A program made the translations under genes and the position numbers. A stretch of DNA of 64,000 nucleotides from Thermodesulfovibrio sp. (GTDB lineage Bacteria > Nitrospirota > Thermodesulfovibrionia > Thermodesulfovibrionales > Thermodesulfovibrionaceae). Below are positions 24,260-48,771 of the stretch, piece by piece (position 1 is the stretch's first letter; the number at the start of each line of letters is the position of its first letter). Under the pieces are notes generated by a model. The model saw only the letters and a list, made by a program, of their open reading frames with translations, had not been told where the DNA came from and searched no databases. The stretch lies in NCBI GenBank assembly GCA_039630505.1, contig JBCNUV010000023.1, positions 52,670 to 116,669 on the forward strand. Direction: 5' to 3'.

Positions 24260-24272
24260 TATTTTCCTCCTA

Positions 24273-25577: not shown

Positions 25578-25588
25578 AGTTTTTCACC

Positions 25589-26011: not shown

Positions 26012-26021
26012 CTGAGACCTC

Positions 26022-27317
26022 CTAAATAGTTCTTCTGTCAATCACTCTCTTTGCTTTTCCTTCACTAATAGGAAGTGTTCCAGGTTCTAAAAGTTCTACT
26101 TTTGGCTTAACCATTGTAGCAGACCTTATTTTATCTATAATTTCCTCCTTTAGTCTAACAAGTTTTTCAATTTTTCCATCAAAGATTTCTCTGTCTATCT
26201 CAACTCTAACTATCATCTCATCATAAGACTCAAGTACGATTTGATAATTTTGAGCTACTCCCTTTATTCCCATTAGTACCTGTTCAATCTGTTGAGGGAA
26301 TATGTTTACACCCTTTACTATAAACATATCATCAGATCTGCCAAGTATTCGTGAGATTCTTCTATGAGTTCTTCCACATTTACAAGGCTCTGAAATAATT
26401 TTTGTTAAGTCTCTTGTTCTGTATCTTATAAGTGGCATTGCCTCTCTGTTAAGTGTTGTTAAGACTAACTCTCCAATCTCTCCATCATTAACAGGTTTTC
26501 CTGTCTCAGGATTAATTACTTCCATAAGAAAATTGTCTTCCCATATATGAAGTCCATCCTTATAGATACATTCAAAACCAACACCTGGTCCATTCATCTC
26601 TGTAAGTCCATAACAGTTGTAAATATCTATACCAAGCATATTTTCAATTTTTTTCCTTGTTTCCTCAGAGTATGGCTCTGCTCCAAGATAGGCTCTTTTA
26701 AGCTTTAGTTCCTTCTTAGGATCAATTCCCTTATCATATATTACAGAGGCCACATACAGAGTATAACTTGGTGTCATATGAAGCATGGTTGTTCCAAAAT
26801 CTCTCATCAAGTTTATCTGTCTTTCTGTATTTCCTGGTCCTGCAGGAATAACAAAGATTCCTACTTTTTCAGCTCCATAGTGCATGACAAAAGCACCTGT
26901 AAAAAGTCCATAGGTCATGCTATTTTGTAGAATATCATTTTTTGTTGCACCTGTCATAACAAGACAGCGGGCAATAAGTTCTGCTGAGTTTTCTATGTCT
27001 TTTTTGGAAAAAAATATAGCCTTTGGTTTTCCCGTAGTTCCACTTGAAGTGTGTAGTCTTATAACTTTTTCAATTGGAACACTTAAAAGTCCATAGGGAT
27101 AGTCAACAAAAAGGTCTTCTTTAGTGGTAAATGGAATATTTTTTATATCATCAAGGGATTTAATATTTGAGGGATTTATTCCTGCATCCTGAAGTTTTTT
27201 TCTGTAGTGAGGAACTCTTTGATAAACCCTTTTTAAAACTTTTTTAAGTCTTTCTAATTGAAGCTGTTCAAGTTTTTCCCTTGGTAATGTTTCCAACTCC
27301 TTGTGCCAGTATTGCAT
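26022..27317 (-). CDS. paaK: Phenylacetate--CoA ligase family protein (PaaK-like, copy 2)
   Basis: 431 aa. Same motif set as copy 1 ([33 protein letters not shown]) but clearly diverged from it. Confidence 0.9.
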   Translation of the reverse strand: MQYWHKELETLPREKLEQLQLERLKKVLKRVYQRVPHYRKKLQDAGINPSNIKSLDDIKNIPFTTKEDLFVDYPYGLLSVPIEKVIRLHTSSGTTGKPKAIFFSKKDIENSAELIARCLVMTGATKNDILQNSMTYGLFTGAFVMHYGAEKVGIFVIPAGPGNTERQINLMRDFGTTMLHMTPSYTLYVASVIYDKGIDPKKELKLKRAYLGAEPYSEETRKKIENMLGIDIYNCYGLTEMNGPGVGFECIYKDGLHIWEDNFLMEVINPETGKPVNDGEIGELVLTTLNREAMPLIRYRTRDLTKIISEPCKCGRTHRRISRILGRSDDMFIVKGVNIFPQQIEQVLMGIKGVAQNYQIVLESYDEMIVRVEIDREIFDGKIEKLVRLKEEIIDKIRSATMVKPKVELLEPGTLPISEGKAKRVIDRRTI

Positions 27318-33853: not shown

Positions 33854-35818
33854 GTGCGTGAACTCAGAGGTTTCTGGAAACTAATACTAAACATACTTGT
33901 TGGATTATGGGGAATATTTATTCTTTATACTGCTTTACTTGCCGCTCTGCATCCCCTTTTGCAGGGCGGTATCTCTCTTTCTATAGGACTTGCCATCGTA
34001 TTCTTAGTTTATCCCTTCTCAAAAAGAATGCTTAAATGGAATGTACCAAAAGTTTTCCAATATCTTCTAACTGGAACTCAAAATTCACCCTCTTTGCTTG
34101 ATCTTATATTTATTATTATTAGCCTTATTCCATGTATTTACATAATGATTCACTGGGAAGAAGTAGTAAGAAATCCAGGCGTTTTTGAGACCTATCATCT
34201 TGTATTAGCTGTTTTATTGATTATAGCTCTTATTGAAGGAACAAGAAGAGCTCTTGGACTGACAGTTCCTATACTTGTTTTGTTTTTCATTATATATACA
34301 ATAGCAGGTCCCCATATTCCAGGAAGATTTGCTCATCCAGGATTTAGTCTTACAGATATTCTCTATCAGCTTTATTTAATGACAGAGGGAATTTGGGGAC
34401 TTCTTACTGATATGGCAAGTAGAATAATAGCACCTTTTATAATTTTTGGTCCTATCCTATTTGCTACTGGTGTTGGTTCAACTGTTATGGAGCTTTCAAC
34501 ATACTTTGGCGGAAAAATAAGAGGTGGACCTGGACATGTAGCAGTAATATCAAGCTCTCTCTTTGGAATGCTTAGTGGCTCATCTGTAGCAAATGCTGCC
34601 ACAACTGGTTCTTTTACAATTCCTCTTATGAAGAAATTTGGATTCTCCCGTGCGTTTGCCTCTGCTGTAGAGGCAGCAGCCTCTTCTGGTGGACAGATAA
34701 TGCCTCCTATTATGGGTGCTGGATGCTTCATAATGGCAGAGTTTCTCAATATTCCATATACAAACATAATGATAGCTGGATTAATTCCAGCTGTGATATA
34801 TTTTGCAGGTATTGCAGCTGGTGTGTGGATTGAAGCTGGTAGAACAGGCATGGGTAAGCTTCCTAAGGAATTAATGCCAGATTTGAAAACTATTCTAAAA
34901 CCACAAAAAATTTTAAACTTTATACTTCCTATAGGTACTCTCGGTGTTTTACTTTTTATGTTCTTCCCTGCACAAATATGTGCAGCATGGGCAATTGTTG
35001 TATCAGTTGTTTATTACACATTTTTCGGAGGACCTCTTAAGAAAAAGGAAATTTTAAACAGAATAAAGACTATATGGGGAGGACTTTTTGAGGGAGTTGT
35101 AAAGGCTTTAGCATGGCTTATGATAATGATGGCATGTGTGCAGATTGCTGTAAGCCTGATATCTTTAACAGGATTTGGAGTAAAGGTTTCAGAGATAATT
35201 ATTGAGATCTCTGGCTATAATGTTTATCTTGCTCTAATAGCAACAATGCTTACAGCAATAATTCTTGGAATGGGCATGACAACAACCGCTGCCTATGTTA
35301 TAGCTGCTGCTGTTTTAGTTCCTGCACTTCAACAGATGGGAGTAAATCCCCTTGCTGCCCATCTATTCATTTTCTATTTTGCTATTAAGTCTGGATTAAC
35401 TCCCCCTGTTTGTATAACAGTATATACAACAACTGCCATTGCTGGAGGTAGTTGGTTAAGAGCTGCTTGGTATTCTATGAAGTTAGGAATTGGTGGGTAT
35501 ATAATGCCTTTCTTCTTCGTATTTGTTCCAGCCTATCTAATGAAAGGTTCTCCATGGGAGATTTTATTCATATTCATTGGTGCCTTTGTTGCTATGTTTG
35601 CCATTGAAGCAGGTGTTTTAGGTTACTGGACAAAACCTTCCACCCCCCTTGAAAGAGCCCTTTACATATCTGGTGGATTAATAATGATGGCACCTGGATA
35701 CTGGACATTTGTAGGATTAGCACTCTTTTTAATTGGACTTTTACTTGAAAAATTTGATGTCCAGATACCTGTTATTGCAAAAAGACCTGCACATGTCATT
35801 GTAAAACAAAAGGATTAA
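33854..35818 (+). CDS. TRAP transporter fused permease (DctQ/DctM fusion, TAXI-associated type)
   Basis: 654 aa, GTG start, more than 16 TM segments. DctM-like blocks: SSSLFGMLSGSSVANAATTGSFTIPLMKK, EAAASSGGQIMPPIMGAG. Confidence 0.9.
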   Translation: MRELRGFWKLILNILVGLWGIFILYTALLAALHPLLQGGISLSIGLAIVFLVYPFSKRMLKWNVPKVFQYLLTGTQNSPSLLDLIFIIISLIPCIYIMIHWEEVVRNPGVFETYHLVLAVLLIIALIEGTRRALGLTVPILVLFFIIYTIAGPHIPGRFAHPGFSLTDILYQLYLMTEGIWGLLTDMASRIIAPFIIFGPILFATGVGSTVMELSTYFGGKIRGGPGHVAVISSSLFGMLSGSSVANAATTGSFTIPLMKKFGFSRAFASAVEAAASSGGQIMPPIMGAGCFIMAEFLNIPYTNIMIAGLIPAVIYFAGIAAGVWIEAGRTGMGKLPKELMPDLKTILKPQKILNFILPIGTLGVLLFMFFPAQICAAWAIVVSVVYYTFFGGPLKKKEILNRIKTIWGGLFEGVVKALAWLMIMMACVQIAVSLISLTGFGVKVSEIIIEISGYNVYLALIATMLTAIILGMGMTTTAAYVIAAAVLVPALQQMGVNPLAAHLFIFYFAIKSGLTPPVCITVYTTTAIAGGSWLRAAWYSMKLGIGGYIMPFFFVFVPAYLMKGSPWEILFIFIGAFVAMFAIEAGVLGYWTKPSTPLERALYISGGLIMMAPGYWTFVGLALFLIGLLLEKFDVQIPVIAKRPAHVIVKQKD

Positions 35819-35822
35819 AAAT

Positions 35823-35852
35823 AAAAGCCTCAGGCATTAACCTGAGGCTTTT
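35823..35852. terminator. Bidirectional intrinsic terminator between convergent genes
   Basis: AAAAGCCTCAGG-CATTAA-CCTGAGGCTTTT, a 12-bp stem with A/T runs on both sides. The stop codon of the convergent hydrolase gene lies in the loop. Confidence 0.7.
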
Positions 35853-36433
35853 ATTTTTAATATTTCTTCAAAACCAATCCAATGGGATTTTGCTATCAAG
35901 AAAGTCTTAGCATAGGGATATAGGATTTTTAAATCTTCTAAAGCATTTATTGGTAAAATTTTATCATTTATACCCTGAATAAGAATAAGATTTGTTATTT
36001 CAGACTTTAAATTAGATACTTCAGAAGAAAGTAGAAACTCAAGTCCATTAATTAACTTTTTATAGTCAACTTTTTCAGGAAATAAGGGATTACATCCAGC
36101 ATTAACTAAAAAATCCTTTATAACCATTTCAGGTTCTGTCTGCATTTTTTGCATCATTCTCCTTATAATTCTTGGCTTCACATAATAAGTGAATTTTCTA
36201 AATCCTGCAATAACTATAATTTCTTTGAATCTTTCAGAAAAAAAGGACAGATTTTTCAAGATAATATGTCCTCCTGTAGACCATCCCACCAATGTATTAC
36301 CTGATTTATCTTTTAGAACTTTTATTATATCTTTTTCATCTAAGTCAATGAAGGGATTTATAAAATGCCAATCTTCTGGTATATCTCCTAAGGCTTCTTT
36401 AAAACCTGCCCAACCTGAGATGAAAAGATTCAC
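35837..36433 (-). CDS. Short alpha/beta-hydrolase-like protein (possible BioG/BioH-type esterase)
   Basis: 198 aa. LFISGWAG N-terminal strand and a GxSxG nucleophile elbow (GWSTGG). His near the C-terminus (KSHW). Functional assignment is speculative. Confidence 0.5.
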   Translation of the reverse strand: MNLFISGWAGFKEALGDIPEDWHFINPFIDLDEKDIIKVLKDKSGNTLVGWSTGGHIILKNLSFFSERFKEIIVIAGFRKFTYYVKPRIIRRMMQKMQTEPEMVIKDFLVNAGCNPLFPEKVDYKKLINGLEFLLSSEVSNLKSEITNLILIQGINDKILPINALEDLKILYPYAKTFLIAKSHWIGFEEILKIKASG

Positions 36434-37368
36434 TATTGATTGATTATTGCGACGGTTTGTTCAAAACAGTTATTCAACACTGTTGTACTTACACCACCTA
36501 AAATAATATCTCTAATTGGAGAACGACCTTTACGTCCCATTACTATAAGGTCATAGTTACCTTGTTGAATTTCCCTGATAATCTCATCCTTAGGAAAACC
36601 AACAGTACTTTTCGTAATTACTAAATCGGATGGTATTCCCTCATTAATAAATTTTCTTTTAGATTCAATAAGAATTTCTTCTGCTTCCATCTCTGGATCA
36701 ATTCCTTGTCTAAGTCTTTCAAGATATAATGATACATTTATTACTCTTAAAATAGTTATATTTTCTATATTTTTAACAACCTTAGCAAGAGATAAAACAT
36801 GCTCAACAGCCTTCATTGAGTACTCAGAACCATCAACAGGAATAAGAATCTTACCTATAGGTTTTTCTTCTGAAATTCTTTGTCCTATTATGTATATATT
36901 CTGATTTAAAAGACCATAAAGTATTTTTTCTGAGACACTACCAAGGATTATCTTTTTAAACTTTGACATCACCCTCCGGGCAAGCATGACTGTTTTGATA
37001 TCTTCAGTTGTTGATATTTCTATAATCTTACTACCAGGGTCTCCTATCTCCACTTGTTTTTTTATAGCTCCTAAGAAGCCTGTTGTTCTTATATATTTTT
37101 CGTAATCATCTAAAAATGGCATAATTTGTTCATTAATGTAATTTTCTACAAGTTTATCAGCAAAAACCTTATCTTGAATAATTACCATTTTAAAATCTAC
37201 ATTTTTAAGTTTTTCACTAATAGTTTCAAGAGGAATTACATTAAGAAGGGTAACTTCTATCTCTTTTTCTTCAATATATTTTAATAATGAACTTACAAAC
37301 CTTATTGCCTTCTTTGAGTTTTCACTTTTGTCTACAGGAAGCAATATTTTCTTAAAAACATTCTCCAT
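36433..37368 (-). CDS. Tandem universal stress protein (two UspA domains)
   Basis: 311 aa. Two repeats, each starting KILLPVD.SE.S..A and ending G(S/G)V(S)...: ILGSVSEKIL and MGRKGRSPIRDIILGGVSTTVL. Confidence 0.85.
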   Translation of the reverse strand: MENVFKKILLPVDKSENSKKAIRFVSSLLKYIEEKEIEVTLLNVIPLETISEKLKNVDFKMVIIQDKVFADKLVENYINEQIMPFLDDYEKYIRTTGFLGAIKKQVEIGDPGSKIIEISTTEDIKTVMLARRVMSKFKKIILGSVSEKILYGLLNQNIYIIGQRISEEKPIGKILIPVDGSEYSMKAVEHVLSLAKVVKNIENITILRVINVSLYLERLRQGIDPEMEAEEILIESKRKFINEGIPSDLVITKSTVGFPKDEIIREIQQGNYDLIVMGRKGRSPIRDIILGGVSTTVLNNCFEQTVAIINQ

Positions 37369-37369
37369 A

Positions 37370-38050
37370 CTAAAACTCCAAATTGATTTTTTTATTATCT
37401 ATAAAAATAAATGAATCCATTGGCACAACATAGTTTTTATCTAAATAATGCACCTGTATTCCTGAAACAATAGCATAAGTAATTTCATCTGCTTTAGCGA
37501 GAACATCCATAGTTTTTTCAATCTCATTAAAGCTTATCCGAAGAGCTATCTTAGTTAGTTCCATAAGATCAGGAATCTTATCAGATATCTCCCTTTTCAA
37601 CTTTTGGTTCACAAGATTTAACTCTGGATCTTCCTCTTCTTTGTCAGATTTTGACAATGTATTGAGAAATAATATAAGAGCTCCACAAGCAGTTGATTTT
37701 TCTATGCCTTTTCTTTTACAGAATCCTAAATTTCCATCTTTATCTATTCCTATATGGGTAAGTAAATAAAGAACACTTCTTTTTTCTTTTACTTCAGGAA
37801 GATGGCTTAAGAAAACCTTTAAACCTATTTGTCCAGATATATATACTCCTGCAAAACTTGAAAAATTAAAAAAAACTCCCCAATATTTTCTTATCTCTGG
37901 AAGAACGCTCTGACATATCTCATCTCTGCAAAGACAAACACCTGCTATTGTATTATGATAGCTAAATCCAAATTCCTTTAATCTTTCCGATGAAAGCTTT
38001 ATAAAATCTTTCTCTTTAAAATATCTATTAAAAAGTTTACTTAATATCAT
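37370..38050 (-). CDS. Conserved-looking orphan protein with a Cys/Asp ... His ... Cys pattern (function unknown; candidate metal site)
   Basis: 226 aa, soluble. C39-L-C41-R-D43-E44, H99 (LLTHIGID) and C122 (STACGAL). Its stop is 1 nt from the USP gene start, and it lies 34 nt downstream of the 600-aa antiporter-like subunit gene. Confidence 0.5.
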   Translation of the reverse strand: MILSKLFNRYFKEKDFIKLSSERLKEFGFSYHNTIAGVCLCRDEICQSVLPEIRKYWGVFFNFSSFAGVYISGQIGLKVFLSHLPEVKEKRSVLYLLTHIGIDKDGNLGFCKRKGIEKSTACGALILFLNTLSKSDKEEEDPELNLVNQKLKREISDKIPDLMELTKIALRISFNEIEKTMDVLAKADEITYAIVSGIQVHYLDKNYVVPMDSFIFIDNKKINLEF

Positions 38051-38084
38051 AATTGCTCAACTATTATATCATAAATTTTACTTT

Positions 38085-39887
38085 TTACATGTATCCTCTT
38101 GTGTAGTAAATTATCAAATAAAGCAAAAGAAAGAATATAGACCATAAAACAAGAACACCAACTGATATGGGCAGTAAAGGATCACCTGGATATTTTAATT
38201 TTTCAGCTCTTAAACGAGCTTTAATCTTTTCTCTTTTTTCAGGAATTGAAAAAACAAGAATTATAGAATCAATAAGAATTTTTACTGCTAAAAGAGGATT
38301 TTTTGTAAACCATCCTAAGAAATTTGGAATTTTGATAAAAAATATTGTGTTTAATCTTTGCATAATATGAGAACCCGGGTTATTAATAAACCAAACAAAA
38401 GCTTGAGCTCCTTTTCTGTAAAACCAATCCAAATCAAGATTAGTAGCCCTCATTTCTTCAGGAAAAACTCCTGCTTTCATAAGAAGTACATAAGCAAGTA
38501 TTCCAGCCAACAAAAGTTGAGTTGTTGATACTATATGAGAGGCAGTATAAGGTTCAAAATTTACAGGATATGGAAGAAGACTGTAAAGAAAACTAGGCAT
38601 AACTCCTATAAAGATGCATAAAAATGCTGTAATTCCCATAGCAATAAGCATATGAAGAGGAGACTCCTTTGTTCTTATTCCTGAGTCATGGGCAAAAAAG
38701 GCATAATAAGGAACCTTTATTCCTGCATGTTCAAGCACACCAACAGAGGCAAAGGTAAGCATAAACCAAATTGGTACTAACCCTTCTATAGCAGAGGCTT
38801 CAACTACCATTGACTTACTTACAAATCCGCTAAATAGTGGAAAAGCAGAGATTGATGCAGCACCTATAATGCAAAATAGGGCTGTAAGAGGCATGCTCTT
38901 GTAAAGTCCTCCTAAGTCAGTGCATTTAATTTTTCCTGTTCTATAGATTACAGCTCCCATAGACATAACAAGTAAAGCTTTATATAGAATATGACAAAAA
39001 ACATGTGAAAATGTTCCGTTAAGAGAAAGTTGAGTGCCAATACCTATTCCTGTGACCATATATCCAAGTTGGTTTATTAGACTGTATGAAAGTACTTTTC
39101 TTAAGTCATTTTCAATAACCGCAAAAAATATAGGAAAAACTGTCATAATAGCACCAATCCATATAAGAATTTCTTCTCCTGGAAAGGCTCTTGCAAGAAC
39201 ATAAATAGCTGTCTTGGTAGTGAAAGTCCACATAAAAACTCCACCTGTAGGTGTTGTCTTTGGATAGGCATCAGGTAGCCAAGCATGAAGTCCTGGAAAG
39301 GCACAATTTATTCCAAATCCTAAAAATATTAACCAAGAACTTAATCCATCAAGTCCAATATAACCAAAGCTTAAAGAACCTGTTTCAAAGTAACGTATTA
39401 CAACTCCGAATAAAAGAAATAATCCTCCCACTATATGAACTAATAGATATCTTAATCCTGCAGTATAGGACTCCTTTGTTCTTGATGCCCATATGAGATA
39501 GAAAGCACTGAATGCCATCATTTCCCAAAATATAAAAAGAGTAAATAAATCACCAGCAAAAACTACTCCTAATGCTGCACCTGAATATACAATAGAAGCT
39601 ATATGTTGAGCAGGCTCTTTTACATGGAGTGAGTAAAGTAACGCAATAAATGTGATTATATGGTAGATATACCCAAAAAATATGCTAATTTTATCAACTT
39701 TGACAACAATAAGCTTATACTCCAGAAAATTTATACTGTAATGAACACCTTCAGGTAGATTTATAAAATTAATAAAACCTAAAACTGGCAAAGACAATAA
39801 ATAAATACTTAAAGCCTTACCTCTTAAAAAGGGAATAACAAAAGCACCAAATATAAATAATATTGCAGGAGGAATTGGACTAATCAC
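38085..39887 (-). CDS. NuoL/MrpA(N)/MrpD-like antiporter subunit with a long C-terminal extension
   Basis: 600 aa. Proton_antipo_M core (FWEMMAFSAFYLI, HAWLPDAYP, SHVFCHILYKALLVM, FSGFVSK). Followed by a tail of about 120 aa containing an amphipathic stretch and a final TM helix. Confidence 0.85.
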   Translation of the reverse strand: MISPIPPAILFIFGAFVIPFLRGKALSIYLLSLPVLGFINFINLPEGVHYSINFLEYKLIVVKVDKISIFFGYIYHIITFIALLYSLHVKEPAQHIASIVYSGAALGVVFAGDLFTLFIFWEMMAFSAFYLIWASRTKESYTAGLRYLLVHIVGGLFLLFGVVIRYFETGSLSFGYIGLDGLSSWLIFLGFGINCAFPGLHAWLPDAYPKTTPTGGVFMWTFTTKTAIYVLARAFPGEEILIWIGAIMTVFPIFFAVIENDLRKVLSYSLINQLGYMVTGIGIGTQLSLNGTFSHVFCHILYKALLVMSMGAVIYRTGKIKCTDLGGLYKSMPLTALFCIIGAASISAFPLFSGFVSKSMVVEASAIEGLVPIWFMLTFASVGVLEHAGIKVPYYAFFAHDSGIRTKESPLHMLIAMGITAFLCIFIGVMPSFLYSLLPYPVNFEPYTASHIVSTTQLLLAGILAYVLLMKAGVFPEEMRATNLDLDWFYRKGAQAFVWFINNPGSHIMQRLNTIFFIKIPNFLGWFTKNPLLAVKILIDSIILVFSIPEKREKIKARLRAEKLKYPGDPLLPISVGVLVLWSIFFLLLYLIIYYTRGYM

Positions 39888-40122
39888 TGTAGTAATCCTC
39901 TCTCCTTTTAACTAATGGTCTTAAAATGTGCTTTGAAACCATTATAAGAAAAACAAAGGCCACGAAACCGAATGAAGCATAAAAGAAAGGATAATTCTCC
40001 CATGGAAAATAAATATGTTTATGTATGAAAAATTCAGCAATTAAGGAAAATACTAAAAATAAATAAAAAACTGCAAAAAAGATCTTTACATTTTTCGGAC
40101 TATCAAAAAAGTATCTTTTCAT
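39880..40122 (-). CDS. Small two-TM membrane protein
   Basis: 80 aa. Strong RBS (AAGGAGG). Its stop overlaps the start of the 600-aa subunit by 8 nt. Two hydrophobic helices. Confidence 0.6.
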   Translation of the reverse strand: MKRYFFDSPKNVKIFFAVFYLFLVFSLIAEFFIHKHIYFPWENYPFFYASFGFVAFVFLIMVSKHILRPLVKRREDYYSD

Positions 40123-40135
40123 TACTTGAACCTCC

Positions 40136-40231
40136 TTAAAGGGTATTAAAAAGAATATAGACTAAATAAAGAAAACAAACTACAAAAATTACATAAAAAA
40201 TCTTCAAAAACAAAGAATCAGCTTTTTTCAT
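40136..40231 (-). CDS. 31-aa single-TM micro-ORF (absent from the supplied ORF track)
   Basis: Read by hand: GGAGG-ATGAT-ATG, then MKKADSLFLKIFYVIFVVCFLYLVYILFNTL*. It starts 1 nt after the mrpD stop and ends just upstream of the RBS of the 80-aa gene. Confidence 0.4.
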   Translation of the reverse strand: MKKADSLFLKIFYVIFVVCFLYLVYILFNTL

Positions 40232-40232
40232 A

Positions 40233-41714
40233 TCATCCTCCGAAGGTCTGATTCACTATCAATATTATTAGCTTTATAAAAGGATGCGGACATAAAAATA
40301 CTACCAATGTTAAAACTGCAGTCAAAACTGTTGGAATTAAGACAAAAATTGGAGCTTCATTTATTCCATTGTATTTACTATCCTTTGATTTTTTCATAAA
40401 AGCTACATAAACTATTGGCATAAAGTAACAAGCATTTAGTATTGTACTTATAGCTAAAATAGCCAATACAAAAATCTTATCTGACTCAATAGCACCAACA
40501 CTAAGATACCACTTACTAATAAAACCTGCAAAAGGTGGAACTCCTATCATTGAGAGAGCTCCTATTGTAAATGATGCCATAATAAGAGGCATTCTTTTTC
40601 CTATTCCATCAAGTTCGCTTATTTTTGTTTTATAAGTTGTCACATATATTGCTCCTGCAGCAAAAAATAGAGTAATCTTACCAAAGGCATGGGCTATAAT
40701 ATGAAATATACTTCCTTTTAGTGCTGAAGGACTAAGAAGAGCTGCACCAAGAACAATATAAGAAAGCTGACTTACTGTAGAGTAGGCAAGTCTTAGTTTT
40801 AAGTTATCCTGTCTTAAAGCTATAACTGAGGCTGCCACTATAGTGAAAGATGCAACTACAGCAAGTACTGTTTCTAGATTAAGACTTTTTAAAAGATCAA
40901 CGCCAAATATATAAAAAACAACTCTTAGAATCATGAATACGCCAGTCTTTACTACAGCTACAGCATGAAGAAGAGCACTTACAGGTGTTGGCGCCACCAT
41001 TGCTGCAGGAAGCCAACTGTGAAGTGGCATTATAGCAGCTTTTGTAATTCCTGCAATATAAAGAAGAAAAGTAATCGTTAACAATGAAGAGGAAATATCA
41101 TTACTTAAATTTCCTCCTTTTGAAAAATAAAGATTTCCTGAAAGACAGTAAGTAAGCACAATTGCTGTAAGTTGAAATGCCACAGAAGTACTAAGTAAAT
41201 AAGCCAGATACTTTCTGGCATTTTTCTTTGCTTCCTCAGTTTCTTTATGAGCCACAAGAGGATATGTAGCTATCGTTATAATTTCATAAAATACAAAAGC
41301 AGTAAAAATATTTGCTGAAAAAGCTACGCCCATTGTAGCAGAAAGAGTTATTGCAAAATAAACAAAATAACGAGTCTGTTTATGTTCATTAAGTCCACGC
41401 ATATATCCTATTGAGTAAAAAGAAGTAATAATCCAAAGAAAAGATGCTGTCATTGCAAAAAATAATCCTAGGGCATCAATTCTAAAGTGTAAAATAAGCT
41501 CAGATGTTATTCTAAATAAGCAGTATTCAATTACTTTCCCACACAGAATATCTGGTAACATCGAAACAACTATTAAAAATTTAAAAATAGAAGCAAGAAT
41601 ACTCCATGTCTCTCTCAAATTTCTTAATTTTTCACCAGTTATTGCTATAAGAAAAGCTGATACTGCTGATACGGCTATTGCAAGTACAGGTTTTATTGAA
41701 ATACTTGTCTCCAT
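40233..41714 (-). CDS. mrpD: Mrp/Mnh antiporter subunit D-like (NuoM/N-like), copy 2
   Basis: 493 aa with about 14 TM segments. Motifs HSWLPAAMVAPTPVSALLHA, HIIAHAFGKITLFFAAG, PPFAGFISKW. Confidence 0.9.
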   Translation of the reverse strand: METSISIKPVLAIAVSAVSAFLIAITGEKLRNLRETWSILASIFKFLIVVSMLPDILCGKVIEYCLFRITSELILHFRIDALGLFFAMTASFLWIITSFYSIGYMRGLNEHKQTRYFVYFAITLSATMGVAFSANIFTAFVFYEIITIATYPLVAHKETEEAKKNARKYLAYLLSTSVAFQLTAIVLTYCLSGNLYFSKGGNLSNDISSSLLTITFLLYIAGITKAAIMPLHSWLPAAMVAPTPVSALLHAVAVVKTGVFMILRVVFYIFGVDLLKSLNLETVLAVVASFTIVAASVIALRQDNLKLRLAYSTVSQLSYIVLGAALLSPSALKGSIFHIIAHAFGKITLFFAAGAIYVTTYKTKISELDGIGKRMPLIMASFTIGALSMIGVPPFAGFISKWYLSVGAIESDKIFVLAILAISTILNACYFMPIVYVAFMKKSKDSKYNGINEAPIFVLIPTVLTAVLTLVVFLCPHPFIKLIILIVNQTFGG

Positions 41715-41718
41715 AAAT

Positions 41719-43200
41719 CTAAAATCCCTTTGGCAAACTAAATTTAATCACAGATGAGATAATCTCTCCACTGTAAAGTCCTATTATTAGAATTGCTAAG
41801 GCTGTTATAACTATTGGAATCATCATACTTATAGGTAATTCCCGAAAGTTATACATGGGAGTATTCTCATTTTTTGTAAAGTAAATTTTTTCAAGAATTC
41901 TGAAAAATATGAGTGCATTAACTAAACTACTAAAAATCAGAATGACTGCAGAAACCAAATATCCTGCCTTGACAGCACCTACTATTAAATACCACTTACT
42001 AAAAAATCCTGCAGTAGGAGGAATTCCTATCATAGACAAAGCTGCTATGGTAAATGCTGCCATTGTGATTGGCATATTTCTGTTAAGTCCATTAAAGTCT
42101 TCGATATTTCTTGAACCAATTCTATAAAAGACTCCTCCTGCAATCATAAAGAGACAACCAATCATTAATGAATCATTCAATATGTGTAAAACAGCACCTA
42201 TAAATCCCTCTTTATTCCCTATATTTATGCCAAATACCATATATCCTATCTCTGCAATCAATATGTAAGAAAGAGTTCTCTTAAAGTCCTTCTGTCCTAT
42301 TGCAATGAGACTGCCAAAAAATATCGCTATTGTTGACCACCAGATAAGAATATTTGAAAGAGGAGTCATCTCTATTAGAAATTTTGGCTCAAAAAGTGTA
42401 AAAGATATTCTGATTAAAACATATATGCCAACCTTTGTTACAGTTGCTGAAGCAAAAGCACTAACAGCAGAAGGCGCAAAAGTATACGAGTCTGGTAGCC
42501 ATCTATGAAGTGGAAATAAAGCTATTTTAATTCCAATACCTACTATAAAAAATGCTAAGGCTGTGAGAGTCACCTTTGATTCATAAAGAGATGGTAGAAG
42601 TCTTGTAAGATCGCTAATATTTAATGAACCTGTAATGATATATATATATCCTACTCCCAACAAATAAAAACAAGCTCCTATGGTACCCATTATTATATAG
42701 TGAAAACTTGCAAGAACAGAGCGTTTCTCTCCAATAGCTACCAAAGCATATGCTGAAAGAGAGGCTATTTCAAGAAACACATAAAGATTAAAGATATCTC
42801 CAGTGACGGTTATTCCAAATAATCCTGTTGCAAGAAGTAAGTATGTAGAGTAGAAATATGGTAGTTTTGCCTTTGAAATCTCCTTTTTTACACTATCCTT
42901 AGAGTAAATAGCCACGATAAAGCTCATTGATGAAACGATGACAATTAAATAGGCATTTAAATGATCTATCACATATTCGATTCCCCATGGAGCCATCCAG
43001 CCACCAAGTCTGTATCTTAATACTCCGAAGTTAATAACTTGGCATAATATATCAATTGAAAGAGCTACACATATACCTAAAACCAATACAAAAAAAGGAT
43101 AACAAAGTTTCCTTTGAAGAAAATTTAAAAATATATTAACAAATGAAGCAATTAAAGGAATAACAACGATTAAGATTGAGGAGTGTTCTGACAGATTCAT
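41719..43200 (-). CDS. mrpD: Mrp/Mnh antiporter subunit D-like (NuoM/N-like), copy 1
   Basis: 493 aa. Motifs HRWLPDSYTFAPSAVSAF, LHILNDSLMIGCLFMIAG, PPTAGFFSKW. Confidence 0.9.
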   Translation of the reverse strand: MNLSEHSSILIVVIPLIASFVNIFLNFLQRKLCYPFFVLVLGICVALSIDILCQVINFGVLRYRLGGWMAPWGIEYVIDHLNAYLIVIVSSMSFIVAIYSKDSVKKEISKAKLPYFYSTYLLLATGLFGITVTGDIFNLYVFLEIASLSAYALVAIGEKRSVLASFHYIIMGTIGACFYLLGVGYIYIITGSLNISDLTRLLPSLYESKVTLTALAFFIVGIGIKIALFPLHRWLPDSYTFAPSAVSAFASATVTKVGIYVLIRISFTLFEPKFLIEMTPLSNILIWWSTIAIFFGSLIAIGQKDFKRTLSYILIAEIGYMVFGINIGNKEGFIGAVLHILNDSLMIGCLFMIAGGVFYRIGSRNIEDFNGLNRNMPITMAAFTIAALSMIGIPPTAGFFSKWYLIVGAVKAGYLVSAVILIFSSLVNALIFFRILEKIYFTKNENTPMYNFRELPISMMIPIVITALAILIIGLYSGEIISSVIKFSLPKGF

Positions 43201-43571
43201 TTTTTCTTTCTCAGAATTTCAATTATTTCATCTTCATCAAGAGTTTTATACTGTTTATAAAGCATCATAATCACAGCAAGGGCGACACCAAATGTACTTA
43301 CCATTACCACTATGGCAGTAAGCATAAGCACATGAGGTAAAGGATTAATATACTTTGCTGGATCTATGACTTCTTGAGATTTAATTAAAATAGGTATTGT
43401 AGCATCTTTTTTATAGGCTGTTGATATGAAAAATAGGATTATTGCAGTCTGAAATATATTCATTCCTACGATTTTTTTTACCAGATTCCTTTTTGCTATC
43501 ATGGCATAAAATCCTATCATCATAAGAGCTATGTAAATCCAATAGTTATATTTACCAATAACTGTCTCCAT
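43197..43571 (-). CDS. mrpC: Mrp/Mnh antiporter subunit C (NuoK-like)
   Basis: 124 aa. Motifs NLVKKIVGMNIFQTAIILFF and NPLPHVLMLTAIVV. Confidence 0.9.
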   Translation of the reverse strand: METVIGKYNYWIYIALMMIGFYAMIAKRNLVKKIVGMNIFQTAIILFFISTAYKKDATIPILIKSQEVIDPAKYINPLPHVLMLTAIVVMVSTFGVALAVIMMLYKQYKTLDEDEIIEILRKKK

Positions 43572-44033
43572 TTAGACCTCTCCTTTTTCATGTTTACCAA
43601 AAGTTGTAAGATTAAGGAATATGGATACCATAACAGCCATAACAGTAATTCCAACCCCAATCTCTATAATTAAAGTGCCTAAGGCGCGAACCTTAACAGA
43701 GTCAGTTGGAATAATCTTATTAAGAATTCCATAGTTTAAGTACTCTGCTCCTAAAAGTATGCACAAAACTCCCACTAACGCATATATAAGAACTCCAAAA
43801 GCCATTAAAAGAGTATTTTTTTTCTCTGAAAATCTTCTTTTCATCCAGTTTATATCATAGGCAATTACCATTAGGATAAATGATGCACCTAAGATACATC
43901 CTCCTTGAAATCCTCCACCTGGACTATAATGTCCATGTGCAATAACATAAAAAGCAAAAAGTTGAATGAGAGGAATCATAATTCTACAAACTGTTTGTAT
44001 TATGAGATCATCATAAAGTCTTATCATCCTCAA
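43572..44033 (-). CDS. mrpB: Mrp/Mnh antiporter subunit B (MnhB domain; MbhF-like)
   Basis: 153 aa. HGHYSPGGGFQGG motif of the MnhB domain. Confidence 0.85.
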   Translation of the reverse strand: MRMIRLYDDLIIQTVCRIMIPLIQLFAFYVIAHGHYSPGGGFQGGCILGASFILMVIAYDINWMKRRFSEKKNTLLMAFGVLIYALVGVLCILLGAEYLNYGILNKIIPTDSVKVRALGTLIIEIGVGITVMAVMVSIFLNLTTFGKHEKGEV

Positions 44034-44295
44034 ATCTCCTTAAAAGCAGAATACATACAACAGCAGCAGTAAATATCACTGTTGTTTCTCCTAAGGTATC
44101 ATAGCCTCTGTAGTCTGCAAGAACTGAAGTAACAGCATTTGGAGTGGCAGTTTCTTCAATGGTTTTTTCAATATAACGTGGTGACACATGTAGGCTTGCT
44201 GGAGAGTTAGGATCTCCCCAGTCTGGCATATCAAGAGTGCTGTATATAAGCACAGCACCTGTAAGTATAACTATTATTAAAGCAAAAAACTTCAA
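44011..44295 (-). CDS. MnhB-related small subunit (MbhE-like)
   Basis: 94 aa. NAVTSVLADYRGYDTLGETTVIFTA, the N-terminal MnhB-domain signature. Confidence 0.75.
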   Translation of the reverse strand: MKFFALIIVILTGAVLIYSTLDMPDWGDPNSPASLHVSPRYIEKTIEETATPNAVTSVLADYRGYDTLGETTVIFTAAVVCILLLRRFEDDKTL

Positions 44296-44537
44296 TCTTT
44301 TGTCCTTCTTGTTGTTTGATAAATTGCACCTATAAAAAAGGCAGTACTAATTCCAGCACCAACAGCAGCCTCTGTAAAAGCCACATCAACAGCTCCCATT
44401 TCTGCCCATAAAATGCACATAAGAAAGCTGTAAGCACCTAAAAGTATTGCAGAACTTAATAAGTCTTTAACATGAATGGCTGCTAAAGCACATATTAGAA
44501 GAATAGTTAATATTAATATTTCCATTATCCATGTCAT
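44292..44537 (-). CDS. DUF4040 / MrpA C-terminal-domain-like small subunit (MbhD-like)
   Basis: 81 aa with three TM segments. GAVDVAFTEAAVGAGIS signature. Confidence 0.75.
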   Translation of the reverse strand: MTWIMEILILTILLICALAAIHVKDLLSSAILLGAYSFLMCILWAEMGAVDVAFTEAAVGAGISTAFFIGAIYQTTRRTKD

Positions 44538-44875
44538 TTCTTTAAATCCTCCTTTTTTATGGGAATTACTCCACTGTCTAATCCCGCCTTTGTCAAAGCA
44601 TGGGTTGCTGTAGGATTAGCAAGAAATATGAAAAAAATTATAAAGAAAATTTTTATAGAAACAAGTATTGTGCTAAAGGAAAAATCCTCTTTAAGTATAT
44701 ACACTACTACTCCCAAAAGAACCAATACTGCACCAAGAGTATCTCCCTTCCCTGTTGCTTGAAGTTTACAATAGAAATCTGGAAATCTTAAAAGTCCAAC
44801 AGTGGCAGTGAAGAAAAAGAACAATCCTATAACTACAATTATGATTATAAAAATATTTATAATAAAATCAATCAT
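44534..44875 (-). CDS. mrpG: Mrp/Mnh antiporter subunit G
   Basis: 113 aa. GLLRFPDFYCKLQATGKGDTLG signature. Confidence 0.9.
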   Translation of the reverse strand: MIDFIINIFIIIIVVIGLFFFFTATVGLLRFPDFYCKLQATGKGDTLGAVLVLLGVVVYILKEDFSFSTILVSIKIFFIIFFIFLANPTATHALTKAGLDSGVIPIKKEDLKK

Positions 44876-45180
44876 TTTCCAGTCTCCCTGTCTTTTAAAA
44901 ATTTAGTTCCCGGCTTTATACTCTTTCTAAGCCTAAAAAACTTAGATGCTGCAAGTGTAGCTATAAAGTTAAGAAGAGCATAAGCAAGAGAAATATCAAC
45001 AAACATTTCTATTCTTTTATAATAAACTCCCAACAAAACAAGAATTAATGTAGTTTTAGTTCCAATAACTCCCACTGCGGCAATTCTATCCATAATTGTA
45101 GGACTAAATATAGCACGATAAAGGCATAAAATAACCATTATTCCAAGAACTATTATTGTCAATACAAAAAAGTTTTCCAT
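44872..45180 (-). CDS. mrpF: Mrp/Mnh antiporter subunit F
   Basis: 102 aa. YRAIFSPTIMDRIAAVGVIGTK signature. Confidence 0.85.
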   Translation of the reverse strand: MENFFVLTIIVLGIMVILCLYRAIFSPTIMDRIAAVGVIGTKTTLILVLLGVYYKRIEMFVDISLAYALLNFIATLAASKFFRLRKSIKPGTKFLKDRETGK

Positions 45181-45190
45181 TATTTATTTT

Positions 45191-45697
45191 CTAATCAATT
45201 TTAATATCCTCTTCAAATATCTTAGCAACCTTTTCTTCCATCTCTCCAGTAAGCAAATCTTCAGCAACTTTTCTACTGATGCAGTGGATGATAAAAATAT
45301 TATCCTTAGTAATGTCCATAGTTATTGTTCCAGGTGTAAGAATTATCGAGTTTGCAAATACAACCTTTGATATATCCTTTTTAAGTTTAGCTTTGTATTC
45401 AAGCACAAAAGGTTCTATTGGCATTTTAGGATGTAATACTAAGTAAGCAACATGAATATTTGCAAGAATTATCTGATAAAATAGCCAAGGAATATATTTT
45501 ATAAATCTAAATCCCTCTATTATGTGAGATTTTGTAATTTTTTCGCTACTAAATAATAAGTCTCCCGAGATTAACGTAATTATTAAACAAGATATTGCTC
45601 CAAGTGACAAATGAAAAATATCAAACATTCCAGAAAAGATACACCAAAACCCAAAAAGAATGAAAAAGGTAACTACTTTCTTATTCATATCTACCAC
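45191..45697 (-). CDS. mrpE: Mrp/Mnh antiporter subunit E
   Basis: 168 aa. N-terminal TM helices, NIHVAYLVL and SIILTPGTITMD (MnhE signature). The true start may be the ATG 9 nt downstream. Confidence 0.85.
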   Translation of the reverse strand: MVDMNKKVVTFFILFGFWCIFSGMFDIFHLSLGAISCLIITLISGDLLFSSEKITKSHIIEGFRFIKYIPWLFYQIILANIHVAYLVLHPKMPIEPFVLEYKAKLKKDISKVVFANSIILTPGTITMDITKDNIFIIHCISRKVAEDLLTGEMEEKVAKIFEEDIKID

Positions 45698-45732
45698 CTT
45701 CTCTGCATAAAACAGAAATCATGCTGTAATAT

Positions 45733-46248
45733 TTATTTTTTTATCATTTCATCTGAAATTATCTCAAATATTTCAAACATTCTTACTACACCTAAAAGTT
45801 TTTTCTTGTCTTCAATTACAGGTAAAACAGGTAAGTTAAAATTAATCATTAAGTAAGCTGCTTTGAAGATTGAATCTGAAGGATCAACAAAATGTTTTAT
45901 AGGAACCATTACTTCATTTACAGGTTTTTGAAGAAAACCCTTAAAACTCTCACTGAAAAGGTTTTCCCAATCAATTTCTATTTTTTGTGCTACTGAAGAA
46001 TCTGACACTACTGCTAAGTTATTATTTGAAGAAAAAATTCCTCTTAAAACATCTTTAGGCGTTACTGTTCCAAGAAGATTATATTTTTCATCAAATACAA
46101 GCACCACAAGCGGGTCTGTATATTTTTGAGACTGAAAAAAAGATGTTTTTATTACTTTTATTACTTGTTCAATACTAAACCAATAGGGAATGTGAGGATA
46201 CTCAAATAACTCCAACATTATGTCCTTTACGACCTTCCTCTCTGTCAT
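45733..46248 (-). CDS. CBS-domain pair protein
   Basis: 171 aa. Two CBS repeats (VKDIM ... LLGTVTPKDVLR ; VNEVMVP ... LPVLPVIEDKKKLLGVVRMFEIF). First gene of the mrp-like cluster, 35 nt upstream of mrpE. Confidence 0.85.
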   Translation of the reverse strand: MTERKVVKDIMLELFEYPHIPYWFSIEQVIKVIKTSFFQSQKYTDPLVVLVFDEKYNLLGTVTPKDVLRGIFSSNNNLAVVSDSSVAQKIEIDWENLFSESFKGFLQKPVNEVMVPIKHFVDPSDSIFKAAYLMINFNLPVLPVIEDKKKLLGVVRMFEIFEIISDEMIKK

Positions 46249-46469: not shown

Positions 46470-47402
46470 TTAAGAAATAATCCTCAAATTACTCAAAGAA
46501 AATATTAAAAGAGATAAAACTGTCGTAAGAAATATCATTTCAACAGAGGTTTTCATATCTATTCCAAAGACTGTTGCAAAGAGCATACTAAGTAACATTG
46601 AAGGCATTCCTGCCTCTACAATACAGACATTAAGAGGAATACCCGTAAGTCCAAAAATCTTTCCATATAATAAAGCAAAAAGAGGTGATATAACCACCTT
46701 AACCAAGATTGCTGGTAAAGAGGAAATAAATCTTTTTGGTGCCACAGCTTTTATAGATATTCCTACAACAAATAGCATAAGAAAAGTAATATACTTTGAA
46801 ATTAAACTGATTAAATTTATTAATTCCCCAGGTATATTTATACCTATTTCTCTAAATATCAAACCTAAAAACAATCCCCAAATAGGAGGAATTTTAATAA
46901 TTGTGACAATAGAATCTTTTAGTTTTATACTCTTTGCTCTACCATACTTCATGCATATAGCCACTGCCAATGTCCAGGTAAGTGGAGTGCTTGCCAAAAG
47001 ATCATAAGTGAAAGCATAACTCATACCCTGAGTTCCATATAGTTTTGTTAATATAGGCAAACCCATATAGAGAACATTTCCAAAAGCAGAACAAACAATA
47101 AAAGCACCTATAGATTCAGACTTTATCCCTCTAAATAAATTCATTTTTTTGTAGATTAACCAAGAAACTAAGACACAGCTTATTATTGTAAGATTAGCAA
47201 CTAAGGATACTTTAAAATGACTTAAACTAAAAGGCATTGTATAGGTTGTCTTAAAACATACAAAGGGTATTATGTAGTAAAAAACAATATGGTTGATTCT
47301 GTCACGATAATAATCAATCTTTTCAGGAGATACTCCTTTAATTGTAAGCAAAACTCGTAAAAAGACTCCGCTTAGAATAAAAAGAAAAATATCAAAAAAC
47401 AT
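46470..47402 (-). CDS. Auxin efflux carrier (AEC) family permease
   Basis: 310 aa with about 10 TM segments, glycine-rich helices and no soluble domains. Family call is by overall pattern only. Confidence 0.7.
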   Translation of the reverse strand: MFFDIFLFILSGVFLRVLLTIKGVSPEKIDYYRDRINHIVFYYIIPFVCFKTTYTMPFSLSHFKVSLVANLTIISCVLVSWLIYKKMNLFRGIKSESIGAFIVCSAFGNVLYMGLPILTKLYGTQGMSYAFTYDLLASTPLTWTLAVAICMKYGRAKSIKLKDSIVTIIKIPPIWGLFLGLIFREIGINIPGELINLISLISKYITFLMLFVVGISIKAVAPKRFISSLPAILVKVVISPLFALLYGKIFGLTGIPLNVCIVEAGMPSMLLSMLFATVFGIDMKTSVEMIFLTTVLSLLIFSLSNLRIIS

Positions 47403-47424: not shown

Positions 47425-48771
47425 TTAAATTTTTTCGGCAAGCTTTAATGAGTTTTCAATACAATCATTAACACTTACACCTCTGTATGCATTGCCAGTA
47501 AGATATAATCCTGGAAATTTATTAAGTATTGTATCTATACGATTTAGTTTGTCTTCATGCCCTAACTCATACTGGGGAATTGCCTTTTCCCATCTAAATA
47601 TCTTCACAAATTCAGGGTCTCCTTTAATGTTTAAAATACTTTTTAATTCACGCAAAACTGTCTCAGTAAGATTTTCATCAGATAACATGGCAAGTTCAGG
47701 TGCTCTTCTACCTCCAATCATGCTTCTAAGCAAAACATAGCCTTCAGGTGCCCTGTTTGGAAAAATACTTGAATCAAAAAGAGTTCCAAGAATCTTTCTT
47801 TTCTCCCTGTAGGGTATTAAAAAACCATAAAGAGATGTTCCAAAACCAATCTGCTCTTTTTTAAATCCAAAAGCCACTACACTTAAAGGTGGATAAGGAA
47901 TAGTTTTTAAGATATCTGAAATTTCTTTATTAAGTTCCTTTAATATTTCTGCTGTTTCATAGGCAGGACATGAAAGCACTACTTTTTCTGATTCAAATAT
48001 ATCTCCATTTTCAAGATAAACAGAATAGTAACTATTTTGCTTCGTGATGCCAATTACTCTGTTACCTTTTATTATCTTTGATGAAAGATTACACTCTAAA
48101 CTATAAACAAGCTCTGCCATTCCAGTTTTAAATGACATAAGAACTACGGATGGTTGAACTTTTACATCTTTTCTTTCTTTTCTTAGAGCAATTAATCCTC
48201 TTATAAGTCCACCATATTTCTTTTCAAGCCAATAAACCTTTGAAAAGCAGCTTTTCATACTCATCTTTGAAGGATCTCCTGCATAGATTCCAGTAGACAA
48301 GGCATCAATCAGCTTTTCATAAAACTCTCTTCCAACTCTGCGAGTGACAAAACTTTCAACAGTCTCGTCTGTGTGTTCTTTTACTGGTGCAACAAAGTAT
48401 TCTTTTAGCATTCTTATCTTGCCAGAAATTGAAAGAATTGGTGAAAGAAAAAATTTAATTGGATTCTCTGGAACTTTTGTCATTTTTCCATCTATAAGTA
48501 GATATCTTACTTTTGAGTTATCACTTCCTTTAATAGGCTCTATATTTAGTTCACTGGCAAGACTTAGTGTAGAAAGTTTGTTATTTAAAAAACCATTAAC
48601 ACCACCTTCACATAAAAATCCTGAGATATTTTCTGTAACTATTTTGCCACCTACTTTTTTTTCAGCCTCTATTATCCTCAAATCAAGCTGAGGATTTTTC
48701 TTAAGCAAGAAATAAGCAAGGGAAAGTCCTGAAATACCTCCTCCTACAATAACTAATTCTGCTGAGCCCAT
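47425..48771 (-). CDS. hemY: FAD-dependent protoporphyrinogen/coproporphyrinogen III oxidase (HemY/CgoX type)
   Basis: 448 aa. IVGGGISGLSLAYFL dinucleotide fold. C-terminal GLYLTGNAYRGVSVNDCI, typical of HemY. Confidence 0.85.
   Translation of the reverse strand: MGSAELVIVGGGISGLSLAYFLLKKNPQLDLRIIEAEKKVGGKIVTENISGFLCEGGVNGFLNNKLSTLSLASELNIEPIKGSDNSKVRYLLIDGKMTKVPENPIKFFLSPILSISGKIRMLKEYFVAPVKEHTDETVESFVTRRVGREFYEKLIDALSTGIYAGDPSKMSMKSCFSKVYWLEKKYGGLIRGLIALRKERKDVKVQPSVVLMSFKTGMAELVYSLECNLSSKIIKGNRVIGITKQNSYYSVYLENGDIFESEKVVLSCPAYETAEILKELNKEISDILKTIPYPPLSVVAFGFKKEQIGFGTSLYGFLIPYREKRKILGTLFDSSIFPNRAPEGYVLLRSMIGGRRAPELAMLSDENLTETVLRELKSILNIKGDPEFVKIFRWEKAIPQYELGHEDKLNRIDTILNKFPGLYLTGNAYRGVSVNDCIENSLKLAEKI

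Follow-up and report, generated by a model that had tools for sequence, protein, structure and literature searches.

A bacterial LCIB-type carbonic anhydrase encoded beside an Mrp-type antiporter in Thermodesulfovibrio: a known family in a conserved gene neighbourhood not described before

Why should a non-photosynthetic anaerobe carry, at the end of a cluster of antiporter genes, a small protein with the cysteine and histidine residues of a carbonic anhydrase (CA)? The question is raised by a gene at positions 37370-38050 (minus strand) of a 64,000-nucleotide stretch of Thermodesulfovibrio sp. contig JBCNUV010000023.1 (assembly GCA_039630505.1), referred to here as the window, to which all coordinates without a locus name belong. 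An earlier note, made by a model from the sequence alone, had described the product as an orphan with a candidate non-canonical, LCIB-like beta-CA zinc site. The 226-amino-acid (226-aa) protein belongs, as a bacterial representative, to the LCIB (theta, or beta-like) CA family known from algae. The conserved genomic context in which it occurs has not been described. It is best explained, with reasonable confidence, as a soluble cytoplasmic zinc CA that is accessory to ion-transport cassettes.

Family, fold and predicted zinc site

The open reading frame (ORF) starts with ATG, and its product matches the Pfam family LCIB_C_CA (PF18599) with 135.7 bits against a cut-off of 25 (E=1.9e-39), over residues 14-211 of the protein and positions 5-217 of the 223 in the profile. 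This was the sole Pfam match at E<=10, a threshold at which neither the canonical beta-CA family (PF00484) nor the DabA family (PF10070) was found. The search of NCBIfam gave no match, and this collection having no model for an LCIB-type protein accounts for the label "hypothetical" that NCBI gives to an identical protein in a Thermodesulfovibrio metagenome-assembled genome (MAG). The description as an orphan did not survive: a word-indexed search returned 368 homologues, with PF18599 in all 120 among the matches listed, and an exhaustive search of 1.84 billion representatives returned 819 representative clusters at E<=1e-3, of which 365 reach E<=1e-10. These clusters are representatives at 50% identity, and many are 230-250 residues long, similar to the window protein.

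The best matches to sequences in the PDB were LCIB and LCIC of Chlamydomonas reinhardtii (CrLCIB, 5k5w, 9.3e-24; CrLCIC, 5b5x, 1e-19) and LCIB4 of Phaeodactylum tricornutum (PtLCIB4, 5b5y), with two further LCIB_C_CA entries also present. An AlphaFold2 model built from 29 homologues reached a predicted local distance difference test score of 84 and a predicted template-modelling (TM) score of 0.84. With this model as the query, Foldseek ranked eight LCIB-family chains first (E 1e-15 to 4e-12, TM score 0.72-0.84), with E from 1e-15 to 5e-13 for 5k5w, 5b5x, 5b5y, 5b5z, 5b60 and 6kfs, followed by canonical beta-CAs (Rv3588c, TM score ~0.47), so the comparison with known folds that had been proposed as a check fell on the LCIB side. 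The LCIB-like assignment, offered at first by eye, is therefore borne out by Pfam, PDB sequences, fold and ligand conservation alike, and everything that sequence and predicted structure can say about family membership agrees.

A script found each of C39, C41, R42, D43, E44, C46, H99, C111 and C122 in the translation, including all of the Cys, Asp, Glu and His residues that had been read by eye, and gave the same spacings of 58 residues from C41 to H99 and 23 from H99 to C122. The canonical beta-CA motifs CxDxR and HxxC are absent, the corresponding stretches being C41-R-D-E-I and H99...C122, which is the long His-Cys spacing previously remarked upon. In the PDB alignments, LCRDE of the window protein falls residue for residue on LCRDE of CrLCIB, D43 on the Asp of that motif and of LCSDE in PtLCIB4, H99 on the His of PHIAI and C122 on the Cys of ACGAL. 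The numbering offset of PtLCIB4 is fixed by the names of its PDB mutants, S47R corresponding to R42 and H88A to H83. The zinc ligands of PtLCIB4, reported to be Cys46, His102 and Cys126 (Jin et al., 2016), then correspond to C41, H99 and C122. R113 is the equivalent of CrLCIB Arg194, counted 32 residues past His162 along CrLCIB, and both His162 and Arg194 have been named in a review as important active-site residues.

Among 29 homologues with 41-87% identity, C39, C41, R42, D43, E44, H83, H99, C111, R113 and C122-G-A-L are invariant; these include the four positions (C41, D43, H99 and C122) whose conservation in orthologues had been suggested as a check. The zinc site therefore appears to be intact, with C41, H99 and C122 as its predicted ligands. 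R42, which had not been singled out before, sits at the position of the PtLCIB4 S47R mutant, making the window protein CrLCIB-like at this position.

No transmembrane segment was seen in the protein (maximum Kyte-Doolittle mean over 19 residues, 1.2) and no signal peptide, the N-terminus being polar and free of any hydrophobic stretch. On the strength of these two features the protein is taken to be soluble and without a signal peptide, as was initially thought.

The operon in the window

The gene belongs to a 15-gene unit on the minus strand, made up of a CBS-domain gene, 11 Mrp genes, LCIB, a tandem universal stress protein (USP) gene and a 198-aa gene, followed by a terminator (Table 1). 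The order of transcription is CBS, MnhE, MrpF, MrpG, MbhD-like, MbhE-like, MnhB, MrpC, two MrpD-like genes, the 80-aa gene, the 600-aa gene, LCIB, USP and the 198-aa gene. LCIB follows the 600-aa gene (stop at 38085) after 34 nt and precedes the USP gene (start at 37368) by 1 nt, distances that had been read correctly from the sequence. The terminator scan found no terminator between the 600-aa gene and LCIB, which, together with these short gaps and the strong terminator past the last gene, places LCIB in one operon with Mrp. The terminator hairpin has T-runs on both sides and is shared with a convergent TAXI-TRAP transporter gene (33854-35818, plus strand).

Table 1. Coordinates in the window of the LCIB gene, its predicted active-site codons and the other members of its transcription unit. 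Small Mrp subunits are listed by ascending coordinate, which is the reverse of transcription order.
Feature	Position	Strand	Basis
LCIB/theta-type (beta-CA-fold) carbonic anhydrase, 226 aa, cytoplasmic	37370-38050	-	PF18599, PDB matches, fold match, no transmembrane segment
C41 codon, predicted zinc ligand 1 (= PtLCIB4 Cys46)	37928-37930	-	PDB alignment, invariant
D43 codon, active-site Asp two residues past ligand 1	37922-37924	-	PDB alignment, invariant
H83 codon, active-site His (= PtLCIB4 His88, CrLCIB His162)	37802-37804	-	PDB alignment, invariant
H99 codon, predicted zinc ligand 2 (= PtLCIB4 His102)	37754-37756	-	PDB alignment, invariant
R113 codon (= CrLCIB Arg194), probable D43 partner	37712-37714	-	PDB alignment, invariant
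C122 codon, predicted zinc ligand 3 (= PtLCIB4 Cys126)	37685-37687	-	PDB alignment; ACGAL motif invariant
CBS-domain protein, 171 aa, soluble, first gene of unit	45733-46248	-	PF00571
Small Mrp subunits: MrpC/NuoK-like, MnhB, MbhE-like, MbhD-like, MrpG, MrpF, MnhE	43197-45697	-	Pfam: PF00420, PF04039, PF20501, PF13244, PF03334, PF04066, PF01899
Two MrpD-like antiporter subunits, 493 aa each	40233-41714 and 41719-43200	-	PF00361 (1.8e-53, 2.4e-60); NCBIfam MrpD families
80-aa small membrane protein, always precedes 600-aa subunit	39880-40122	-	Conserved with Mrp cluster in all loci
600-aa antiporter-like subunit	38085-39887	-	PF00361; NCBIfam NF009310 "Na+/H+ antiporter subunit D", 737 bits, full length
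Tandem universal stress protein (USP), 311 aa	36433-37368	-	PF00582, two stretches
198-aa protein, last gene of unit	35837-36433	-	Weak Peptidase_S9 and BioH matches (alpha/beta-hydrolase-like)
Bidirectional terminator hairpin, perfect 20-bp stem, 6 G-C pairs	35815-35860	.	Terminator scan

The Mrp cluster (38085-45697) has the Mbh-like gene order E-F-G-MbhD-MbhE-B-C-D-D-80aa-600aa, with three antiporter-like subunits. A full set of MrpA-G equivalents is present (MnhE, MrpF, MrpG, MbhD, MbhE, MnhB, MrpC and three PF00361 subunits), the MbhD, MbhE and MnhB pieces representing the MrpA C-terminus plus MrpB. Hydropathy indicates two hydrophobic segments in the 80-aa protein, for which neither Pfam nor NCBIfam gave a family match, and two extra hydrophobic segments in a C-terminal extension of the 600-aa subunit.

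An extended -10-like element, TGATATAAT, lies at 38063-38071 (minus strand) in the 34-nt gap, 12 nt upstream of the LCIB ATG, before which no clear Shine-Dalgarno sequence was seen. Transcription might start from it internally and yield a near-leaderless transcript, or the element may have arisen by chance, the DNA having 31% GC. A promoter scan of the window was uninformative (50 sites against 57.7 expected), and scans of the window for Rfam families and tRNAs found nothing.

Immediately upstream of the unit is a tetrapyrrole biosynthesis cluster (47425-52527) encoding HemC, a fused CobA/HemD and an amine-oxidase-type flavoprotein. A permease of the Mem_trans (auxin-efflux-carrier) family (46470-47402) lies between this cluster and CBS, in the slot held by GntR in related loci. 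Further away, an indolepyruvate/pyruvate:ferredoxin oxidoreductase-like gene and two phenylacetate-CoA-ligase-like genes (AMP-binding_C_2) at 22289-27317 suggest aromatic amino-acid or aryl-acid metabolism, unrelated to the LCIB finding.

Recurrence of the gene neighbourhood

Fifty loci encoding LCIB relatives were taken from GTDB species genomes, and their neighbours were identified by tblastn with the window neighbours and by Pfam. The hosts are nearly all Thermodesulfovibrionales or other Nitrospirota, together with two Thermodesulfobacterium and one Acidobacteriota MAG. One cassette occurs in three forms. Type A, CBS-Mrp-LCIB-USP-p198 (p198 being the 198-aa gene), is that of the window and of loci L001-L004 and L006-L008; type B, GntR-CBS-DASS-LCIB-Mrp, is that of L018-L020, L038 and L046. 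The majority form, type C, has the order GntR-CBS-DASS-LCIB-permease-USP, in which the permease is a 577-aa ArsB/CitMHS-like protein, with a divergent phosphoenolpyruvate-synthase-like gene alongside. The window unit at 35837-46248 is a derived form of this GntR-CBS-DASS-LCIB-permease-USP cassette.

Examples of type C are L009-L017 and L058 (L058:7189-13414); their permease may also be described as MamN-like, and the phosphoenolpyruvate-synthase-like gene encodes 850 aa without the usual C-terminal domain.

Neighbours were counted in 30 LCIB loci, those with 2.5 kb or more of sequence to either side. CBS was present in 27 of these and GntR in 24, followed by DASS (20), USP (16), the 577-aa permease (15) and the Mrp cluster (10), with five loci having neither Mrp nor the permease. 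The p198 gene is kept after USP in the type A loci and in L084, a metagenomic locus described below. LCIB adjoins Mrp in three orders: Mrp-LCIB (the window, L001-L004, L006-L008, L057 and L084), DASS-LCIB-Mrp (L018-L020 and L038), and TauE-USP-LCIB-Mrp (L051). This adjacency is found in two phyla, Nitrospirota and Actinobacteria.

In a tree of the CAs built by neighbour joining, a single clade holds type A, and type B is scattered among type C, indicating that Mrp was gained or lost repeatedly beside LCIB. The cassettes of Thermodesulfobacterium and Thermodesulfovibrio are 80-94% identical in DASS and permease, and transposase genes flank the cassette in Thermodesulfobacterium strain TA1, from which it seems that the whole cassette has moved between phyla. 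It is apparently horizontally mobile, occurring in Nitrospirota, Thermodesulfobacterium and dsr-bearing Actinobacteria.

In L048 the LCIB gene is split into three frames, maybe through long-read indel errors. Directly after the cassette of this locus (L048:12312-19510) are genes for two PF00361 subunits, a NuoH-like protein, a fused NuoC/D-like large subunit and a NuoB-like protein; the cluster was considered as a possible DAB system and rejected, being group-4 [NiFe]-hydrogenase-like.

Seen from the Mrp side, relatives of the 600-aa subunit that are at least 60% identical occur in Nitrospirota, Nitrospinae, Syntrophales and Actinobacteria, and Mrp clusters of this type (at least 50-60% identity) are common across metagenomes and in several phyla, as a rule with no CA alongside. 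The Mrp context to which the earlier note had drawn attention is thus recurrent as far as LCIB is concerned, but most such Mrp clusters have no LCIB. DASS, TauE or the permease also recur beside Mrp in loci that lack LCIB. In one Actinobacteria MAG (L051), the TauE-USP-LCIB-Mrp series adjoins an ATP-sulfurylase gene (sat), and in another (L057), CBS-DASS-Mrp-LCIB lies near dsrC and dsrMKJOP-like genes. L084 has the order GntR-CBS-DASS-Mrp-LCIB-USP-p198, and no CA was found in the Mrp context of L053.

One metagenome contig (L055) carries GntR-CBS-DASS-DASS-Mrp without LCIB, followed by a divergent canonical beta-CA gene (L055:12584-13132; 182 aa; CMDNR...HNNCGM; Pfam Pro_CA 25.2 bits, just under the cut-off), which is possibly a non-orthologous replacement of LCIB. 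It may be argued that, because a canonical beta-CA replaces LCIB beside the same gene set, CA chemistry is the selected trait.

Two loci hold further traces of the family. Four kb downstream of Mrp in L051 is a second, partial module (L051:15237-19819) consisting of TauE, a 241-aa protein for which no family match was found, USP, a truncated LCIB (145 aa) and USP. L056 was considered as an Mrp cluster without a CA and rejected as such, since a decayed LCIB remnant lies between USP and MnhE (L056:3550-3830); it covers approximately residues 70-156 before running into stop codons, and the gene caller had placed a 158-aa ORF on the opposite strand.

Proposed role, alternatives and significance

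With its site complete and strictly conserved, the protein is most simply read as an active cytoplasmic zinc CA, although both zinc binding and activity are inferred here. It would constitute a 226-residue catalytic core in which C41, H99 and C122 hold the zinc, with D43, oriented by R113, and H83 completing a site for CO2 + H2O <-> HCO3- + H+. Its gene would be co-transcribed with the 11-gene Mrp-type cation/proton antiporter, the CBS protein and the tandem USP, as part of a cassette whose hosts are sulfate reducers, anaerobic and for the most part thermophilic, and whose CA is always found among ion transporters (DASS/TauE anion carriers, and Mrp or the ArsB/CitMHS-like permease). Ion transport would probably draw on the protein as a source or sink of protons and bicarbonate. 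Its most likely job would be to keep CO2, bicarbonate and protons in fast equilibrium at the inner face of the membrane, so that Na+/H+ exchange and Na+-coupled anion uptake (possibly of sulfate) would be freed from local pH or bicarbonate limitation. It would then be an accessory of the transporters and no core subunit, a role favoured because its companions are ion carriers and nucleotide-sensing regulators, because Mrp and the permease share a slot, and because a beta-CA can substitute. The transported anion may be sulfate, as suggested by hosts that are sulfate reducers of three phyla and by the sat and dsr genes close by in L051 and L057.

Several observations weigh against this account. 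Only one (L084) of 80 further metagenomic loci of the same Mrp type has LCIB, and any substrate given to DASS, TauE or the 577-aa permease would be putative. A comparative survey of sulfate transporters lists no DASS for T. yellowstonii, for which reason sulfate as the anion is put forward only as a suggestion. The literature search found no paper characterising a bacterial LCIB-type CA. R42 represents the CrLCIB/LCIC state of the PtLCIB4 Ser47 position, and according to a review the recombinant LCIB homologues with solved structures had no CA activity in vitro; PtLCIB3/4 have been described as constitutively active CAs.

Coupling to transport could also be tighter than an accessory role implies. 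In an energy-coupled, vectorial CO2 hydratase, an LCIB dimer would be docked on Mrp (the distal NuoL/MrpA-like subunit of 600 aa being one candidate site), the proton of hydration would leave through the antiporter-like channel, and the ion-motive force would drive one-way conversion of CO2 to bicarbonate and hence carbon accumulation, as compared with DabAB and CupA/NDH-1MS. Such a model is attractive because the LCIB gene abuts a PF00361 subunit gene, in the window as in L057 and L084, and the linkage to Mrp recurs in two phyla and three gene orders. There is precedent in DAB, where DabA, a beta-CA-like cytoplasmic protein, is paired with and encoded beside DabB, a PF00361 antiporter-like membrane protein. 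In the cyanobacterial NDH-1MS/MS' complexes, a CO2-hydrating protein, CupA or CupB, is attached to the distal NuoL-like subunit. Algal LCIB has, moreover, been proposed in a review to act as a one-way CO2 trap. However, in L051 and in type B the Mrp gene that LCIB abuts is MnhE, at the opposite end of the cluster; a single-gene permease takes the place of Mrp in half of the LCIB loci; and approximately 25 Mrp clusters of this type, for which both flanks are available, have no LCIB. Because the 600-aa subunit is ~60% identical with or without LCIB, no specialised antiporter paralogue is visible. The protein also has no homology to DabA, whose family (PF10070) is unrelated in sequence and forms a two-gene system as opposed to an 11-gene Mrp mostly without a CA, or to CupA and CupB, and the window operon lacks both NuoH and a Q-module. 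A DAB/Cup-like energy-coupled hydratase is accordingly possible but unsupported, and is considered unlikely.

It is less likely still that the protein is catalytically silent, serving as a CO2/bicarbonate binder or scaffold that regulates the transporters with CBS and USP. The gene is indeed flanked by two classes of nucleotide-binding regulatory proteins, and the CrLCIB/LCIC type, with the same Arg at position 42, was reported by a review to be inactive as a CA in vitro. All ligands and three second-shell catalytic residues are, however, invariant over 41-87% identity, as would be expected of an enzyme, and a canonical beta-CA occupies the equivalent neighbourhood of L055. Some beta-CA-fold enzymes hydrolyse carbonyl sulfide (COS) or carbon disulfide (CS2), and a hydrolase for such a CO2 analogue of sulfur chemistry would fit a sulfate-reducing host. 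Nothing speaks for it beyond the range of hosts and the sat and dsr genes found close by; in both sequence and fold the protein is closest to LCIB-type CAs, and the neighbours are ion transporters with no sulfur-gas metabolism genes among them, so that this function appears very improbable. As for a chance Cys/His pattern in an orphan ORF, nothing favours it and its probability is practically nil, the pattern being inside a full-length PF18599 match and the idea being ruled out by the Pfam E value, the 368 homologues, the 819 clusters and the confident model.

Two bolder readings are set out here as speculation, and are together considered doubtful. LCIB might be a detachable peripheral subunit of the three-antiporter Mrp complex; the two together would then be, next to Cup/NDH-1MS and DAB, a third kind of CO2 hydratase driven by ion-motive force, with an evolutionary origin of its own. 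Alternatively, LCIB might handle protons and bicarbonate in a module for Na+-coupled sulfate uptake, made up of DASS or TauE, Mrp and the CA, in sulfate reducers, which are not known to have a defined sulfate transporter.

Compared with known members of its family, the window protein shares with CrLCIB and LCIC (5k5w, 5b5x; TM score 0.75-0.79) the PF18599 domain, the identical LCRDE including Arg42, the Cys-His-Cys ligands and the equivalents of His162 and Arg194. These algal proteins differ in their length of 448 aa, their transit peptide and C-terminal extension and their location in the chloroplast, where they form LCIB-LCIC complexes around the pyrenoid, whereas the window protein is a bare 226-aa core in the cytoplasm of a non-photosynthetic anaerobe, encoded in a transporter operon. 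Lacking the transit peptide, the tail and any pyrenoid context, it is not an LCIB in the strict algal sense of a component of the CO2-concentrating mechanism. PtLCIB3/4 and the thylakoid theta-CA of P. tricornutum belong to the same family and fold (5b5y; TM score up to 0.84); identity is ~20%, and PtLCIB4 has Ser at the Arg42 position. Canonical beta-CAs resemble the protein in their Cys/His/Cys zinc site with a neighbouring Asp and in a distantly similar fold, and are set apart by their sequence motifs and PF00484.

The literature searches found no paper linking LCIB-type CAs to Mrp or another antiporter, and the cassette of CA, Mrp, DASS/TauE and USP/CBS was not described in the papers returned by LCIB-plus-Mrp or Mrp-plus-carbonic-anhydrase queries. 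A 2024 review gives counts of theta-CA genes for prokaryotic genomes. Theta-type CAs are probably undercounted in anaerobes because of the NCBI label "hypothetical". LCIB proteins are central to the algal CO2-concentrating mechanism, in which CrLCIB, although inactive in vitro, may be a one-way CO2 trap. A bacterial 226-residue core that is probably thermostable and has the CrLCIB-type Arg42 would offer a simple model for the LCIB mechanism. The recurring association of a CA with Mrp, DASS/TauE and USP/CBS proteins, meanwhile, hints at an unstudied link between CO2/bicarbonate and sodium, proton and anion transport in thermophilic sulfate reducers.

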